Positions 12,385 to 61,628 of a stretch of 64,000 nucleotides of DNA are shown here, piece by piece. A program made the translations under genes and the position numbers. The DNA comes from Sphyrna mokarran. Its lineage: Eukaryota. The notes beneath the pieces are model-generated. The model was not told where the DNA came from and searched no databases. It was given only the letters and a program-made list of their open reading frames with translations. The stretch covers positions 17,360,001 to 17,424,000 of the forward strand of contig JAGIQG010000013.1 in the NCBI GenBank assembly GCA_024679065.1, given 5' to 3'. Every line of letters starts with the position of its first letter. The stretch's first letter is position 1.

Positions 12385-12925
12385 GTGTCCAGTCCTGTTC
12401 TGGTCTTCTGATTTGAGGAAGGATGTAGTGGTATTGGAGGCAGTTCAGAGGAGGTTCTCCAGATTGATTCTGGGGATGAAGGGGTTAACGTATGAGGAGA
12501 GATTAAACAGTTTGGATTTGTACTCACTGGAGTTTAGAAAGATGTTGGGGGGGATCTGATCAAGGTATATAAAATGTGAAAAGGGATTGATAGAGTAAAT
12601 ATAAACCAAATGTTTCCTCTTATGGGCAATCCAGAACAAGAGGTCACAGGTATAGACTATGAGGCAATTAACTATAAAACTGAGATGAGGAGAAACTGCT
12701 TCTCGCAGAAGGTGGTGAATTTGTGGGACTTGCTGCCCCATAGCACAGTGGAATCTGAATCATTGAATCATTTCAAGAAGTAGATAGATATATTGCTGAT
12801 TTTAAGAAAAGGGTAAAGGAGATATGGGGAACAGGTGGGGAAGTGGATTTGAGACCAGCGAGAGATCAGCCATGATCTGATTGAATGGCGGAGCAGGTTT
12901 AAAGGGCTGGATTTGCTGTGTTCCT
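12385..12925 (+). mobile_element. CR1 LINE 3' end
   Basis: Encodes VQRRFSRLI.GM..L.YEERL, RTRGH and FSQKVVNLW motifs. Confidence 0.9.
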
Positions 12926-13100
12926 AGGGTGCTTTTGTCGTTAGGGTGTTGTTTGTCTCTGCTAATGAAGATCCTGAAGGCTGATTATACTGAGGTTTAC
13001 ACTGAGCTGGATCACTGGTCAATTTCTGGTCACCCACAAATCATTCACCTTTCGTGGAAATAGTACTCATCATTTTGGAGATGGCTCCAAAGGAAAGATT

Positions 13101-13390
13101 GAAGTTTATTTATTACTGTCACAAGTCAGCTTATATTAACACTGCAATGAAGTTACTGTGAAAATCCTTTAGTCATCACACTCCAGCATCTGTTTGGGTA
13201 CACTGAGAGAGAATTTAGCATGGCCAATGCACCTAACCAGCACGTCTTTCAGAATGTGGGAGAAAACCAGAGCACCCGGAGAAAACCCACGCAGAGAATG
13301 TGCAAACTCCACACGGACAGTGACCCAAGCCAGGAATTGAACCTGGGTTCCTACCACAGTGAAACAGCAGTGCTAATCACCCTGCTACCC
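13101..13390 (-). mobile_element. V-SINE
   Basis: Same family as 5128-5477. Confidence 0.85.
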
Positions 13391-13769
13391 CAGAAAGTAG
13401 GACAAATGTGCATTCAGAATACCATTTGCAATACTTAGCGCTGAAAATTAATTGGAACAACAACTGACAAACATAAATCCATCCGCTTTGAGAAAGCCAG
13501 AAATGGATGTGTTTTTCTTCAACAGTTTCCATCCTGTTATTGGCTAAGCCTCTGAAATGACAGGTGTTTGGTCAACACAATAACTACACAGTGAAATCAG
13601 CCATTCTCACCCTGACAGATGCTGGGCTTTTTAACCTTGGAGGAGTGGGGGAGAGATTCATATAGAGATTTAAAGCACTCTTTAAAAGTTAGAATATAGG
13701 TTTTTGTGTGAATTGACCATTGTAAGTTAAGGATCCATCATTATAACTTAAGAATATCTGTGACTTCTT

Positions 13770-13970
13770 GTTCTAGATTGCCCATAAGAGGAAACATTTG
13801 GTTTACATTTACTCTATCAATCCCTTTTAACATTTCAACCTTCTAAACTCCAGCGAGTACAAACCCAAACTACTTAATCTCTCCGCACACTTCAACCCCT
13901 TCATCCCCAGAATGAATCTAGTGAACCTGCTCTGAACTGCCTCCAATCCCACCCACATCTTTCCTCAAAT
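13770..13970 (-). mobile_element. CR1 fragment, inverted relative to 12385-12925
   Basis: cttcttgttctagattgcccataagaggaaacatttggttta is the reverse complement of ~12603-12642. Confidence 0.85.
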
Positions 13971-15358: not shown

Positions 15359-15565
15359 CAATAAGAAATTTCACAACACTAGGTTAAAGTTCAGCAGGTT
15401 TATTTGGTATCATGAGCTTTCGGACCACTGCTCCTTCATCAGATGAGTGATGAAGAGGGGCTCTCTGAAAGATCGTGATTCCTAATAAACTTGTTGAGCT
15501 TTAACCTGGTGTTGTGAAACTTCTTACACTGACCATCCTAATCCAACGCTGGCATCTTCATACCA
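15359..15565 (+). mobile_element. Short palindromic Penelope-type element (inverted pLTR plus tail) with hammerhead motif
   Basis: Imperfect inverted arms, tail ...tccaacgctggcatcttcatacca, TSD cggaggatt (15350-15358) / tggaggatt (15566-15574). Inserted in the RTE element. Confidence 0.8.
15410..15446 (-). ncRNA. Minimal type I hammerhead ribozyme motif
   Basis: tcat-CTGATGA-a-ggagc-agt-ggtcc-GAAA-gc-TC-atga. Confidence 0.65.
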
Positions 15566-17115: not shown

Positions 17116-17313
17116 TGATGTAGAGATGCCACCATTGGACTGGGGTGAGCACAGTAAGAAGTCTCACAACATCAGGTTAAAATCCAATAGGTTTATTTGG
17201 TATCACCAGCTTTCCGAGCACTCACTCACCTGATGAAGGAGCAGCGCTTCGAAAGCTTGTGATTCCAAATAAACCTGTTAAACTTTAACCTGGTGTTGTG
17301 AGACTTCTCATTG
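17116..17313 (-). mobile_element. Short palindromic Penelope-type element, second copy (tail on the left)
   Basis: Tail tgatgtagagatgcc..ttggactggggt; arms cagtaagaagtctcacaac / gttgtgagacttct. Confidence 0.8.
17226..17262 (+). ncRNA. Minimal type I hammerhead ribozyme motif on the CD247 sense strand
   Basis: tcac-CTGATGA-a-ggagc-agc-gcttc-GAAA-gc-TT-gtga; stem I 4 bp, stem II 5 bp. Confidence 0.7.
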
Positions 17314-21894: not shown

Positions 21895-22410
21895 ACCATA
21901 AGAATTAGGCCACCCGGCCCATCGAGTCTGCGCCACCATTCAATCATGGCTGAGTATTTTTCTCATCCCCATTCTCCTGCCTTTACCCCATAACCCTTGA
22001 TCCCCTTATTAATCAAGAACCTATCCTCTCCACTCAATGACCTGGCCTCCACAGCCTTCTGTGGCAAAAAAATTCCACAGATTTTGAAGAAATTCCTCCT
22101 CATCTTTGTTTCAAAGGATCGTCCTTTTAGCCTGAGGTTGTACCCCCTGTTTCTAGTTTTTCCTACTAGTGGAAATATCCTCTCCACATCCACTCTATAC
22201 AGGCCTTGCAGTATCTTGTAAGTTTCAGTAAGATCCCTCCTCATTCTTTTAAACTTCAACGAATACAGACGCAGAGTCCTCAACTGTTCCTCATATGTCA
22301 AGCTCTTCATTCCAGGGATCATTCTTGTGAACCTCCTCTGGATCCTTTCCAAGGCCAGCAGATCCTCCCTTAGATACGAGGCCCAAAACTGCTCACAATA
22401 CTCCAAATGG
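21895..22410 (-). mobile_element. CR1 LINE 3' end
   Basis: HLEYCEQFW...LERIQRRFTRMIPGMKSLTYEE. Confidence 0.92.
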
Positions 22411-22944
22411 TTTAAATGTAAGCCCAAGTAGTGGGAGATATGTGCAGGATGTGACCAAACAGAATATGTTTCAATTCTGATATAAATAAGTACAAAATAT
22501 TTTGCAAGTTGTCGAATTTAGTTCAAATCTCATTCCGAGTACTATGGAATGTAATAGAGGCTGGGAATTCTGGAAGTGCGGTGAATGTTGGTCCTATTGA
22601 TTTGAATTTTTATTCTGCTTTCTGGCTGGCATCCAACTACATTGAGAGGTTGGCTGGCCTAGCAGGTGGGAAGGCATCAGGTGGTAGGCTATAACTGCTG
22701 AAGGGAGAAGTGATCGTAATGGGGAATTAGGGTTCAAATGTGGTTTGGGAGGTTAATCACTGGGCAGGAAGCAGGTGAGCTTGGGGATGTCTTCCTGCTC
22801 TACATTCAGTGTTTATCTCTGATGGAACTCATCCTCATCTCTGTTTAACTACAGGGTTTTCGGAGTCCTGTGAAACCCACTCTACAGACATTAATGTTAA
22901 AATTTGAAACCTGCAGTCTTATTAGCATATTCAGATGTCATTGA

Positions 22945-23400
22945 GGAACAGTTGAGGACTTCGGATCTGTACTTATTGGAGTTTAGAAGGATGGAGGTGG
23001 GGGGAGGTGCGGGATCTTACTGAAACTTACAAGATGTTGCGAGGGCCTGGATAGAGTGGACGTGGAGAGGGTGTTTCCACTAGTAGGAAAAACTAGAACC
23101 ACAGCGCACAATCTCAGACTAAAGGGATAATCCTTTAAAACAGTGATGAGGAGGAATTTCTTCAGCCAGAGACTGGTGAATCTATGGAACTCTTTGCCAC
23201 AAAAAGCTGTGGAGGCCAGGTCATTGAGTGTCTTTAAGACAGAGATAGATAGGTTCTTGATTAATAAGGGGATCAGAGGTTATGAGGAAAAGTTAGGAGA
23301 ATGGGCAATGAGAGAAAAAAAATCAACCATGATTGAATGAATCAACCATGAGCAAACTCGATGGGCTAAGGGGCCTAATTCTGCTCCTATATCTTAAGGT
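22945..23400 (+). mobile_element. CR1 LINE 3' end, same subfamily as 21895-22410, inverted
   Basis: RRNFFSQRLVNLWNSLPQKAVEARSLS..DRFLINKGI. Confidence 0.92.
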
Positions 23401-41666: not shown

Positions 41667-41940
41667 AAAGTTTATTTATTAGTCACAAGTAGGCTTACAT
41701 TAACACTGCAATTAAATTACTGTGAAAATCCTCTATTTGCCACATTCCGGCACCTGTGCGGGTACACAGAGGGAAAACTCAGCACGGCCAATTTATCTCT
41801 GGACTGTGGGAGGAAACTGGAATACCCAGAGGAAACCCACGAAGACATAGGCAGAATGTGCAAACACCATACAGCCCAAGCTGGGAATCAAACCTGGGTC
41901 CCCGATGCTGTGAAGCAGCAGTGCTAATCACTGTGCCACA
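41667..41940 (-). mobile_element. V-SINE
   Basis: Same family as 5128-5477. Confidence 0.85.
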
Positions 41941-42159
41941 TAATATGCTATTATTTCGAAGTAGGCAACTTATCCACCATGTCCTGGCCAATACTTATCC
42001 CACAATCAACGTCTCAAAAAATATGATCTGGTCATAATCATGTTGCTGCTTGTGGAAGTTTGCTGTGTACAAATTGGATGCTGTGTTTTCTACGTTACAC
42101 CAGTGATTGCTCTTCAAAAGTACTACACTGGACATCTCAAAGTGCTTTACAGCTAATGG

Positions 42160-42739
42160 TCGTGATTCTCAGTCATTGGTGAATCCAGTACATCAGTACC
42201 AAAGACAAGGTTGAATTTGCAACCAGCTTTAGCCAGAAGTGCTGAAGTTGACAATTGAGTTCAGCTTCTTCTGAGGTTCCCAGATTCACAGATGCCAGTC
42301 TTCAGCTAATTCATTCACGTGTTATCAAAAAATGGCTGATGGCCCTAGATACTGCTAAGACAATACTCCAGTAGTAACACTAATAAAAACTTGTAGTCCA
42401 GATGTAGCTGTGCTCCTAACCAAGCTGTTCCAGTTTACTTACAATACTGACATCTATCCGGCAATGTGGAAAATTGCCAAAGTATGTCTTGTCCACAAAA
42501 GAAAGGAAAAATCCAACCCAGTCAATTACTGTCCCAACTATCTTCTCTCAATCATCAGCAAAGTGAAGGAAGGGCTTAGTGGTAATGTTATCAAACGGCA
42601 TTTACTCAGCTGTAACCTGCTCATTGATCATCAGTTTGGGTTCCAACAAGGCCACTCAGTTCCCGACCTCATTACAGCCTTGGTTCAAACGTGAACAGGA
42701 GGTCAAAAGGTGAGGGAAGACTGACCGCCCTTGACATAT
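42160..42739 (+). mobile_element. LINE RT fragment
   Basis: YPAMWKIAKVCLVHKRKEKSNPVNYCPNYLLSIISKV...HQFGFQQGHS...LTALDI. Confidence 0.88.
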
Positions 42740-43010
42740 TCAGTAAGAATCTGGCAACACCAATTTTAAATCCAACCGATTTATTTGATAGTAAATCTGC
42801 GAGCTTTCAACTTTCGTCTTTGTCAGGCATTTGCCTGATGAAGACAAAAGTCGCGAGCTTTCGACTTTTGTCTTCATCAGGCAAATGCCTGACAAAGACG
42901 AAAGTTGAAAGCTCGCAGATTTACTATCAAATAAATCGGTTGGATTTAAAATTGGTGTTGCCAGATTCTTACTGAGTTTACCCCAGTCCAACGCCGGCAT
43001 CGCTACATCA
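42740..43010 (+). mobile_element. Short Penelope-type element: perfect 236-bp palindrome plus 35-nt tail, 14-bp TSD
   Basis: Arms 42740-42853 and 42862-42975 are exact reverse complements. Tail 42976-43010. TSD cgcccttgacatat (42726-42739) / cgcccttgatatat (43011-43024). Confidence 0.88.
42851..42884 (-). ncRNA. Minimal type I hammerhead ribozyme motif
   Basis: ttgc-CTGATGA-a-gac-aaaa-gtc-GAAA-gc-TC-gcga. Confidence 0.65.
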
Positions 43011-45489
43011 CGCCCTTGATATATGGCAGCAAAGAGTCTTACCAAAATTGGAGTCACCGGGAATTTTCTCAAAAACTCTCCAGTAATTGGTGTCATACCT
43101 AGTACAAAGGATGATGAGGTCAATCATCTCAGTCTTGGCATATTGGTTTTCATTAGTCATTTATCAGATGAGGGCTTCGTTGGCTGGGCCAGCATTCATT
43201 GCCTGTCCCTAACAGCCCAGAGGGCATTTGAGAGCCAACCGCATTGATGTGGATCTGAATTCACATGCAGACCAGGACAGGTAAGGGCTATACACATTTC
43301 TTTCCTTAAAAGTAAGTTGATGGGTTTTTTTTAAAACAAATATACATTGATTTCATGGTCATCACTACTTCACTGTTGTTGGATCCAAATTGTGGAACTG
43401 CCTTCCTAACAGCACTGTGGATGTAAGTACACCACATGGACTTTAGTGTTTTAAAAAGCTCACCACCACATTCTCAACGATGATTGGAGCTGACCAATAA
43501 ATGCCGGCCGAGCCAGAAACACCGACGTACAGTAGAGGAATGAAAAGAACAGCCATAAGTGTAACAATTGAGGTGATGTGTCAAGGAGTTTGCTGATGGA
43601 TTATTGTAAATAAAACTGCTCTGTTAAGGTCAGATTCCAAACATCTCTTTAAATTTGAATTCAACCACCTGGAGGAACAACATGCATGTTTTCTTAAGAT
43701 AGTTGACAAACTGTTTAAGATTAATAATCAGAAAAAGTCACATACTCAATGGATGTGAACTTCGAAAGAATGGACTGCACAAAGGTAAGCAGAAAATAAC
43801 TAACTTTCCCATCAGCATTTGAGTCAGATTTTTAATGAACCAAGACGCCATTACAAAAATGAATACAAAATGATTAGATAAAATGACCACATTACAATAC
43901 AAAAAAATCTAGTTGCAATGGAATTATTTCATGGCAGTTATTGAAGACAGCTTTATCTGCAATTATTCACTATACAATGGAACAGATTTTGAAAGGGGAC
44001 GTTAAGAACCAAACAGTGCCTTAATGCAGACAGAAGCAGTATTGTTAAATTTGCATTTCCAATACAACTGAGCAGTTCATCATGAATACCTATCGCTGTG
44101 TATCTGGTTTCATAATAAATTAGAAAAATAGGCTTTTGTTTGAATAGATACTTTTTTAAATTAAAAGGGTGGGGAATAAATTAAAACTGTAAAGATCAAA
44201 TATTTATCCAATGTACAGCAGACCAGACTAGTAGCCATATAACATGATCTTAAAACCAGGCAGCATCATGTAAAATCAGAGATATGTGCAATCATTTAAA
44301 TCATTTTTAAAATCTTAAATTCAAGGAATGCTGTTGTCGCATCTTGATTATGAAGGATGGAAAATTATGCTCAGTTATAGCTGTCACTCGCGAATTTATC
44401 TGTTTTTCTGGCTCTTGTGTTGAAACTCCTGAAAAAGATTCCCAGTTCCAGTTCAAACTTCTAATTATAGGTTGACTTATAACTTTTCTACATATGTATA
44501 TTTTATGAACCAATTTTCTAAATAAATCATGTAACAATATTCTTTGTTAGGGAGGCAGAATCATTCCCAATCTGCAGATGGTTAGCTAATTAACCAGAGG
44601 AAAATACAGACAGGAATCTGAAAATTATAAAGCCAAAAAGATAGTTAAGATCGGTAAAAGCTATGTTATAGAATTTAGTAAATCTTTATATCTGTTGATA
44701 CAACATCTTTGCAGTATATGTATCTTTCACCACATCCAATTTCCTTCCCGAATTTGTTATTCAACGAACTTGAGTTAATGATGTTTTTGTTCCCATCTAA
44801 CAAAGTACTGAATTTTAAATTAATCTTTGCAAACACACTGTTATTGTTAGTGAAATGATATGTAATAACGACCAAATTTTAAGCATTATAATTGCCTACT
44901 TCTGATCCTTGAAAAAAAGATCAATTGCTTCAAAGTTCATGCTGAACCTAAAAACTGTTCTAGGTTCAGCCATTCTTCAAAGCATTGAGCCTCTTCAAGA
45001 CCAAAAATTCCAACTGAATTTGACAAATATATTTTTCTGAAGCCATTAGTATATTAAAGATGTCTTCATCATTGAGATTCAATTAATTGATTCCAGTTAA
45101 ATTTATATAAATGTGTCAAAAGATAAAATACATCATGAAATAAGACATAACTAAGATCTGCAAATATGTACCCATGTCATTCATGAATGAAGTATTGTGA
45201 AAACCTAACACTAAACAGGGCAGAATATTTATACCACAAATAAACAAAAACACTAAATAAAATCAAATAACTAAATCTGTCAAAGTGTAAAATTTAATAT
45301 CCTAATAGTTTAGTCCTTACAGCTTCCCAAAGATTAATCTTTGTACTGCTAATTGAGTTTATCATGAGCCAGAAATGTTACTGTACATTGTAAGTTCATT
45401 TGGTTATACCAGTACACAGCAATATACAAATCAATGCTTAACAATAATGCCTTACTGTTGCAATGTGTTAGTAGACAATTACAATGAAG

Positions 45490-60200: not shown

Positions 60201-60499
60201 TCATTGGGCCTTGGTGGTGTTGGTGGCCCCACCTGCTGAGGTCACAGTGAACGAAGAGTTCTGGTTGGAATCAGCTGACATAGAGGCCATCTGGAGACTG
60301 GCTGCATGTCCAGTTGTCCCGGCAGCGGATATCAGGCTTACGGCTGGGTTGCTGGTGAGTAAGGAGAGGTTTTGTGGGTTCAAAAAAAGAGGGGCTGTAA
60401 CGATGTTTGGAGCACCCCCTGGGTTCGCTGCATTGGCAAACAATAGATTTCCACTGGCATCAAGGGAGGTTATAGGAAGCGTTCCACTAGATGCAAGTG
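60201..60499 (-). CDS. POU2F1: POU2F1 (Oct-1) last coding exon
   Basis: Minus-strand acceptor tttctcttttcag|CA CTT GCA. (A)[51 protein letters not shown]...TTKAQ* matches the Oct-1 C-terminus ([41 protein letters not shown], ...KAQ). Adjacent to CD247 as in mammals. Confidence 0.96.
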
Positions 60500-61628
60500 C
60501 TGAAAAGAGAAATAAATCTAGGTTACAACAAATTAGCCTCACGGAGCTATTCACATCACCTGTATATCAAAAAGGAAAAGAGAACAGAAAAATAGCGCTA
60601 GTAATACTTAGCAGGTGTATTTATTAAAAAATTGATAGTAATATCTAAGCAAGGTAAAAATGCATTACTAAATATGTGAATGTGAAGAAATGAACAGAAA
60701 ACTAACAAATTTCAAGTTCTCTCCATATGACATACTAATCACTGTTGCTGAGTCAAAATCCCAGAACACTCTTCCTCAAAGTACTATGGGTGCCCTACGC
60801 CACATAAACTATAGTGGTTCAAAAAGGCAACACATCACTACCTTCTCAAGGACAATTCTGAATGGCAATGAATGCTGTCCTAGCCAGCGATGCCCACATC
60901 CTATGAATGAATAAGTTTTTAAAAATCCAGTTCTTTCCAATCTCATTTCAATAAATAAATGAGTAATCATAAATGAACATTTAATATACGAGAGTTGATG
61001 TTTCCTACAGAAAATCACTGGTCAAGTTCATATTTATTTCCAACAAATCTGAGGTCAAGAGTGGTTGGTTTAACCAACTGTTTAATTTGGGGCTACCATT
61101 TTTACATGCCATTCCTGACCTGTAGCAGTCCTTGCTGGTACAAAGAGAAAGAGAGAGAGAGAGACAAGTACTTTAGTGCAGGCAATTTGGTTTTTAAAAA
61201 TATGTTTCTAAGAAATAAGCTTCTGTTTCCAAAAAAGTCACTTAAAAGCAGTGATTCTGAACCTATGCCGTGTAGTAACATGTTCTACATGTATCAGTTT
61301 ATTTTATTAACTATTTTAGATGCAACTTAACCTAAGTTAAAACTACAGTCAAAAGGAATTGTATATCAACATGTTTAACTTTTGTGTTTCTCATTATTTA
61401 CTGTTTGATTTGCCTCATTCTGTTTAATTTTCTTAATCAATGCATTTTAAAGATCTGGCAGCCTAAACCATCATGCAGCAATTTTTTGTTTTATATCCAC
61501 TTTTCCTATTTGGGAACTATAGAGGTTTACACAATAATCAGGCAATTAAAGCCTTTCACTGAAATTAAAAAATGTACTAGAAATATTCAACAGGTCAGAC
61601 AGTATCTATTGGAAGAAGATGAAGTTAA

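Follow-up and report, generated by a model that had tools for sequence, protein, structure and literature searches.

Probable inverted triplication of a hairpin head inside a Penelope-like retroelement insertion of Sphyrna mokarran

In a 64,000-nucleotide stretch of the Sphyrna mokarran genome (assembly GCA_024679065.1, contig JAGIQG010000013.1, positions 17,360,001 to 17,424,000; hereafter the window), two arms of 114 nt (42740-42853 and 42862-42975) are 100% complementary across an 8-nt loop, and the axis of this palindrome falls between 42857 and 42858, at the centre of an AGCT that belongs to a hammerhead ribozyme-like unit. Together with a one-sided tail of 35 nt the element measures 271 nt (42740-43010), and its arms are the sole 100% complementary pair among the 25 inverted pairs (at least 25 nt long and at most 1.5 kb apart) of the window. 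How did such a symmetry arise, and did the ribozyme take part in it? An earlier note, made from the letters alone, had described the perfect arms with their spacer, the position of the axis and a TSD with one mismatch, all of which were reproduced here, as well as inner near-palindromes with mirrored outer and inner variants, which were present on re-inspection. The four ribozyme-like units that it counted are likewise there, although only one of them holds a full catalytic core (Table 1). A tandem unit of 54 nt with 81% identity is also visible in the palindrome.

Table 1. Features of the palindromic insertion, in window coordinates, and open frames of the parent element
Feature	Position	Strand	Remarks
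Left TSD	42726..42739	+	14 bp, one mismatch to right copy
Outer left arm, inverted copy of the pLTR 3' part	42740..42808	-	starts exactly at the tail boundary
Outer-left hammerhead unit	42809..42829	-	core CTGACAA, G8 lost, CpG-type change
Inner-left hammerhead unit	42832..42852	+	CTGATGA and stem II intact; junction replaces GAAA
Central ten bases, native minus-strand GAAA-GCTC-GC	42853..42862	-	hold AGCT and the predicted cleavage site; 8-nt loop 42854-42861
Inner-right hammerhead unit	42863..42883	-	forms the sole intact catalytic core together with 42853-42862; has lost its stem I partner
Outer-right hammerhead unit	42886..42906	+	core CTGACAA, G8 lost
Outer right arm, sense pLTR 3' part	42907..42975	+	predicted cleavage site after 42914
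Penelope tail, one-sided	42976..43010	+	35 nt; tail as defined in the available text of PMC8557442 and PMC11167929
Right TSD	43011..43024	+	14 bp
Net gain over a single-centre copy	42809..42862, equivalently 42853-42906	.	54 nt
Near full-length RT and GIY-YIG open frames	L194 938-3442; L195 1045-3462; L196 1085-3433

By its sequence, the palindrome belongs to a Penelope-like retroelement, as an inverted-repeat insertion truncated at the 5' end. When the shark's own genome was searched at the DNA level, 2,546 candidates came back, 40 of which were scored, and a 26-mer spanning the arm-tail boundary has 522 exact matches in the genome. Long copies run upstream into a GIY-YIG frame, and a protein search of the genome, which gave 78,941 candidates for the endonuclease region, led to open frames of up to 835 aa; the same pLTR follows all six that were fetched, and the window arm matches this parent pLTR at 85-94%. 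The two frames that were scanned, L194 (835 aa) and L195 (806 aa), contain RVT_1 (E 2e-9 and 4e-10) and GIY-YIG with E-values of 4e-4 and 1e-3, just under Pfam's cut-off. Near full-length open frames of this kind imply that the family has been active recently. A C-x4-C-x2-C stretch lies upstream of GIY-YIG in L194-L199, and the family is a candidate for the Neptune clade of PLEs, which has a Cys-rich linker between RT and EN. The parent encodes RT and then GIY-YIG with a pLTR, and the focal copy consists of an inverted 5'-truncated pLTR, the tail and a TSD, as expected of EN+ Penelope-like insertions; parent, tail and TSD therefore fit the description of Penelope-like insertions in the available text of PMC8557442, PMC3846280 and PMC11167929. 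The accessible parts of the first two already report EN+ insertions with an inverted 5'-truncated pLTR, a one-sided tail of 30-40 bp and a TSD (PMC8557442, PMC3846280), and the focal locus shares with these the inverted arm, the one-sided 35-nt tail, the 14-bp TSD and a parent with RT and GIY-YIG in one frame. It differs from them in lacking an ORF remnant and in carrying the hairpin head twice more, in inverted order, which brings the ribozyme units to four. No description of such a multi-centre Penelope form was found in a literature search that covered mostly papers outside subscription, in their main text. The focal junction and the focal core each occur once genome-wide, and a spreading subfamily defined by either, such as a non-autonomous self-spreading element or a retrozyme, was therefore rejected.

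Mirrored arms as such are ordinary for this family: of the 522 places listed for the arm-tail 26-mer the first 90 were sampled, and 35 of these copies are inverted-arm palindromes, with arms of 19-171 nt that start 0-13 nt from the tail boundary and with scattered fold points. The mirror-image structure is the normal insertion form of this Penelope family, and it is the extra centre that needs explanation. TSDs of 9-17 bp flank 25 of 30 scored palindromic copies and contain a mismatch in nine of the 25. The pooled arm-to-arm mismatch, taken as the family mean, is 4.0%, and perfect arms occur in 2 of 25 copies among arms of at least 60 nt; the outer 69 nt are perfect in 3 of 24 copies and their identity is thus not rare, so that a rebuild of the whole arm is not required. 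Mirrored private variants are common in ordinary copies, mirrored CpG hits show a modest excess (5 of 43 site pairs, 2 expected), and direct internal duplications are present in L003, L004, L006 and L027. The sense arm most commonly starts 31-45 nt upstream of the cleavage site (16/90), and in one copy (L121) the left arm terminates at AGCT. Among the 27 sense-arm 5' ends that lie between -28 and +40, six map to positions 0 to +4 relative to the predicted cut (post hoc p ~0.011), which is a weak hint that cleaved RNA sometimes serves as a template.

Removal of one 54-nt unit from the focal copy leaves a 217-nt copy with 4 mismatches between its arms in 90 positions, every one of them CpG-type, a divergence that resembles the family mean. 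Two candidate ancestors of this kind were considered, the first of which is collinear with L139 and L011 (202/216 identical, no gaps) and the second of which aligns to L009 with 209 matches and 2 gap columns; the four CpG sites are each hit in 8-14 of 40 scored copies (20-35%). From either of these inferred ancestors a single switch-and-return yields the observed sequence letter for letter, as prefix, reverse-complement fragment and suffix of a four-point template switch, with 140 equivalent solutions each and a re-copied stretch of 44-114 nt for one candidate and 53-123 nt for the other. In the four-point model, as set out in the consulted part of PMC5453318, one switch-and-return generates a perfect inverted repeat and spacers are inverted between flanking short repeats. 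The focal locus is alike in these respects and differs from those short-range mutations in that the switch recurs at one site of a repeat family and adds 54 nt. Inverted triplications (ODIRA, DUP-TRP/INV-DUP) are described in the available text of PMC10766186 as arising at short interrupted inverted repeats; they have the same order of segment, inverted segment and segment with palindromic junctions at short inverted repeats, although here tens of bases rather than kilobases are involved and no origin is implied.

Several of these observations make it probable that the hairpin head was triplicated in inverted orientation after insertion, through one polymerase template switch-and-return during replication or repair. 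The reconstructed 217-nt copy is collinear with ordinary ones and its arm divergence of 4/90, confined to CpG, is close to that of the family; the mismatch in the TSD is typical of the age of the family, while 0 mismatches in 114 nt would have a probability of ~0.01 at 4% divergence; and the assembly holds no second locus with the focal core, hence no visible source copy. Neither a pre-event allele nor an orthologous single-centre copy was seen. In the proposed sequence of events the two original arms would first have decayed independently at the four CpG positions, after which a nascent strand may have switched to the other strand, guided on one side by the extended homology between the arms and on the other by a short quasi-palindrome around GAAAGCTCGC, and 44-114 nt would have been copied backwards. 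The ribozyme would have supplied sequence, namely the palindromic stem III in the loop, and not catalysis. The template switch or arm conversion that the earlier note had offered among its options survives in part, as a portion of one half appears to have been re-copied from the other half once the CpG mutations were in place, whereas its rebuilding of an entire half is unnecessary, 44 nt being the minimum.

The fold-back at AGCT that the same note had named fared differently. The central ten bases are native minus-strand sequence and not palindromic, the centre continues 1-2 nt beyond the predicted cleavage site before it turns, and the whole genome contains 0 matches to the pattern of a perfect fold-back at AGCT, compared with one match for the actual focal junction; a fold-back at AGCT itself was therefore rejected. 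By self-complementarity the AGCT axis ranks 1-9 of 126-148 axes in the window arm, depending on window size, and 3-19 in the arm of another copy, and AGCT may have helped, as DNA, to set the register or align the switch. For an ordinary copy (L077), stems I and II are predicted to fold around the hammerhead core, and the family motif CUGANGA...GAAA...UH is present; an Rfam scan of the window gave 0 matches at the gathering score. The accessible text of PMC4209133 on minimal type I hammerheads of metazoan PLEs notes opposite-strand pairs 100-700 bp apart, and the family repeat likewise has CUGANGA, an extra base before stem II, GAAA, a palindromic stem III (AGCU) and a short stem I. Compared with these, the focal units are broken in three of four cases and all are buried in the 114-bp stem. 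The one intact core, that of the inner minus-strand unit, does not appear able to fold, as the predicted structure of either strand is the 114-bp hairpin (-206 and -212 kcal/mol). The product is accordingly expected to lack ribozyme activity and should be capable of folding into a stable hairpin or cruciform.

Switching in the ribozyme loop is not confined to the focal copy. An exact-pattern search for two facing cores at most 60 nt apart retrieved 10 junctions at 8 loci, and nine of these junctions, at seven loci including the focal one, turn in a loop that holds GAAAGCT; being based on exact patterns, all loop-pattern counts are lower bounds and favour young copies. The earlier note had asked whether other copies fold back at AGCT, and the answer is divided: none does so perfectly, but nearly all multi-centre junctions turn within the loop around it. 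Of the eight junctions in a sister subfamily, six turn on an inverted repeat of 5 bp that encloses a 19-nt loop and two on a variant pairing, and other short repeats would have been available in the arm. These sister loops keep ~13 native bases past the cleavage site, and their axes lie 1.5 nt off AGCT, set by the flanking 5-bp repeat. Since the same ~20-nt loop is the turning point at six further loci, which share the multi-centre build, have variants of their own and mostly turn at the 5-bp inverted repeat, the loop is a real hot spot for switching. It is also a rare one, with 47 switched loops in the sister subfamily against 3,093 normal ones. Thirty switched sister loci were examined and comprise 20 plain palindromes joined at the loop, in both orientations (8 and 12), and 10 micro-inversions; another pattern gave 30 matches, 22 of them with a plain inversion of the loop, including three identical unplaced contigs. 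At spacings of 61-200 nt there were 8 matches, namely two re-counts of one array, two inside-out two-unit palindromes that turn further downstream and four others, which we read as neighbouring or unrelated insertions.

Some of these loci also bear on timing. In L155 two CpG variants occur in the three left units and in two loops, whereas the last unit and loop lack them; in L161 the copy rejoins its template within the centre. Both patterns fit in-place triplication of an already decayed arm. Those of L157, L158 and L160 discriminate neither timing. Several further forms were encountered. L153 (G000:C2:63245816-63246058 and flanks) has four alternately inverted centres with eight ribozyme units, both outer loops being flipped and mirrored, and resembles the result of rolling-hairpin synthesis. 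A micro-inversion of the 19-nt loop that spans the cleavage site and destroys the ribozyme recurs in L033-L061 and L206-L230, probably with independent origins, since several stem-II variants carry it. L165 and L169 are inside-out palindromes with cores facing each other, and L169 has a tail at both ends.

The main rival to triplication after insertion is formation at insertion, unlikely in our estimate and yet a credible account, in which the Penelope enzyme would copy the RNA of an older, decayed palindrome through its centre and join or fold back near the ribozyme loop by twin priming or snap-back. A young second-round insertion from such a decayed source would give the same letters, and the left arm does start at the tail boundary as in primary insertions. 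The mirrored CpG excess of ordinary copies indicates that decayed templates or arm conversion do occur, and the 5-bp inverted repeat joins first-round palindromes at 20 of 30 loci and in either orientation, so that the loop is used at insertion too. Only 1 bp of microhomology is found at the 3' end of the focal junction, which likewise argues against a post-insertion event; L153, with mirrored private variants in its alternating centres, looks like repeated snap-back synthesis, and the available text of PMC11167929 reports that a Penelope enzyme nicks and extends both strands in vitro. Formation at insertion would, however, require a young insertion, which sits poorly with the mismatched TSD, and a source copy, none of which was found in the assembly, and for L155 it would take two different template RNAs.

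The remaining explanations each receive far less weight. Ribozyme-linked self-priming, as suggested by the earlier note, would have the cleaved RNA end fold on the palindromic AGCT and prime its own copy, and it could draw on the exact position of the axis, on the AGCT-holding loops of 9/10 multi-centre junctions and on the sense-arm ends clustered just past the cleavage site. The junction, however, retains bases on either side of that site, with 1-2 beyond it in the focal copy and ~13 in the sister loops, from which it follows that the template was uncut there, and neither the missing perfect fold-backs nor the off-centre sister axes agree with it. The 5' product of a cleaved hammerhead ends in a cyclic phosphate, which also counts against self-priming. 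The accessible part of PMC3846280 puts forward self-priming on antisense templates as an origin of inverted PLE junctions, whereas that of PMC11167929 describes cleavage as unnecessary for insertion in vitro. For the focal copy we regard self-priming as very improbable and largely refuted. Two separate steps, a tandem duplication of the 54-nt unit by slippage followed by a flip of the hairpin head between inverted repeats, would agree with the visible 54-nt period and the direct duplications in four ordinary copies, but two events are invoked where one suffices, and neighbouring centres are mutually inverted in the multi-centre loci with asymmetric centres; the chance of this is slight. Equally slight is the chance of an assembly fold-back, which perfect arms, a genome-unique junction and contig support that ends 24 nt into the arm might suggest. 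TSDs on both sides, a tail and host sequence that continue past the right arm, the non-palindromic loop and the six similarly built loci with variants of their own speak against it, as does one DNA run, possibly of the assembly's own sample, that holds 0.97 of 91 sampled words of 41900-42870. An 851-nt contig from run X1 matches 42300-42763 without differences; it supports the flank on the left and extends 24 nt into the arm, fewer than the 31 letters required to count as bridging. Runs X2, X6 and X8, with small shares, have zero cover at 42820-42870, and no listed piece of theirs extends to the insertion site; no RNA run was among the listed holders of the sequence.

The insertion lies in a decayed repeat of high copy number, presumably a relic of a CR1/L2-type RT. 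A placement between two convergent genes, as stated in the earlier note, finds a counterpart on one side at most: a C-terminal exon of POU2F1 lies on the minus strand at 60204-60566 (Pfam E 7.5e-35), 17 kb from the palindrome, whereas no plus-strand gene was found in a Pfam scan of 77 of the window's 119 long frames, in which this exon was the only convincing match beside one sub-threshold match. The window also contains two older palindromic stubs of another Penelope-type subfamily (15362-15560 and 17117-17313), each with a hammerhead core, a one-sided tail and arms that are 83-84% complementary, and long degraded inverted repeats at 21901-23382 and 12428-13952, 81-95% complementary and ~0.6-1.4 kb apart.

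The focal structure is best read as a Penelope stub of a familiar type to which an inverted triplication, a less common secondary event, was added, and it is probably a recurrent by-product rather than the work of the ribozyme; no host function is indicated for the palindrome. The inverted-arm stub is by itself a known and ordinary Penelope footprint, and on this reading the extra centre means that such stubs go on being rearranged. With 47 switched and 3,093 normal loops in the sister subfamily, the junctions can be counted and used to test how inverted repeats are built by Penelope elements. A bolder proposal, which we consider rather doubtful, is that the Penelope enzyme has a built-in point for switching strands in the ~20-nt loop at the hammerhead cut, one that would yield plain palindromes, ribozyme-destroying micro-inversions and rolling-hairpin-like arrays at insertion, with cleaved RNA ends sometimes acting as templates. 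If this were true, the genomic copies would be a readable record of PLE reverse transcription crossing the ribozyme cut.
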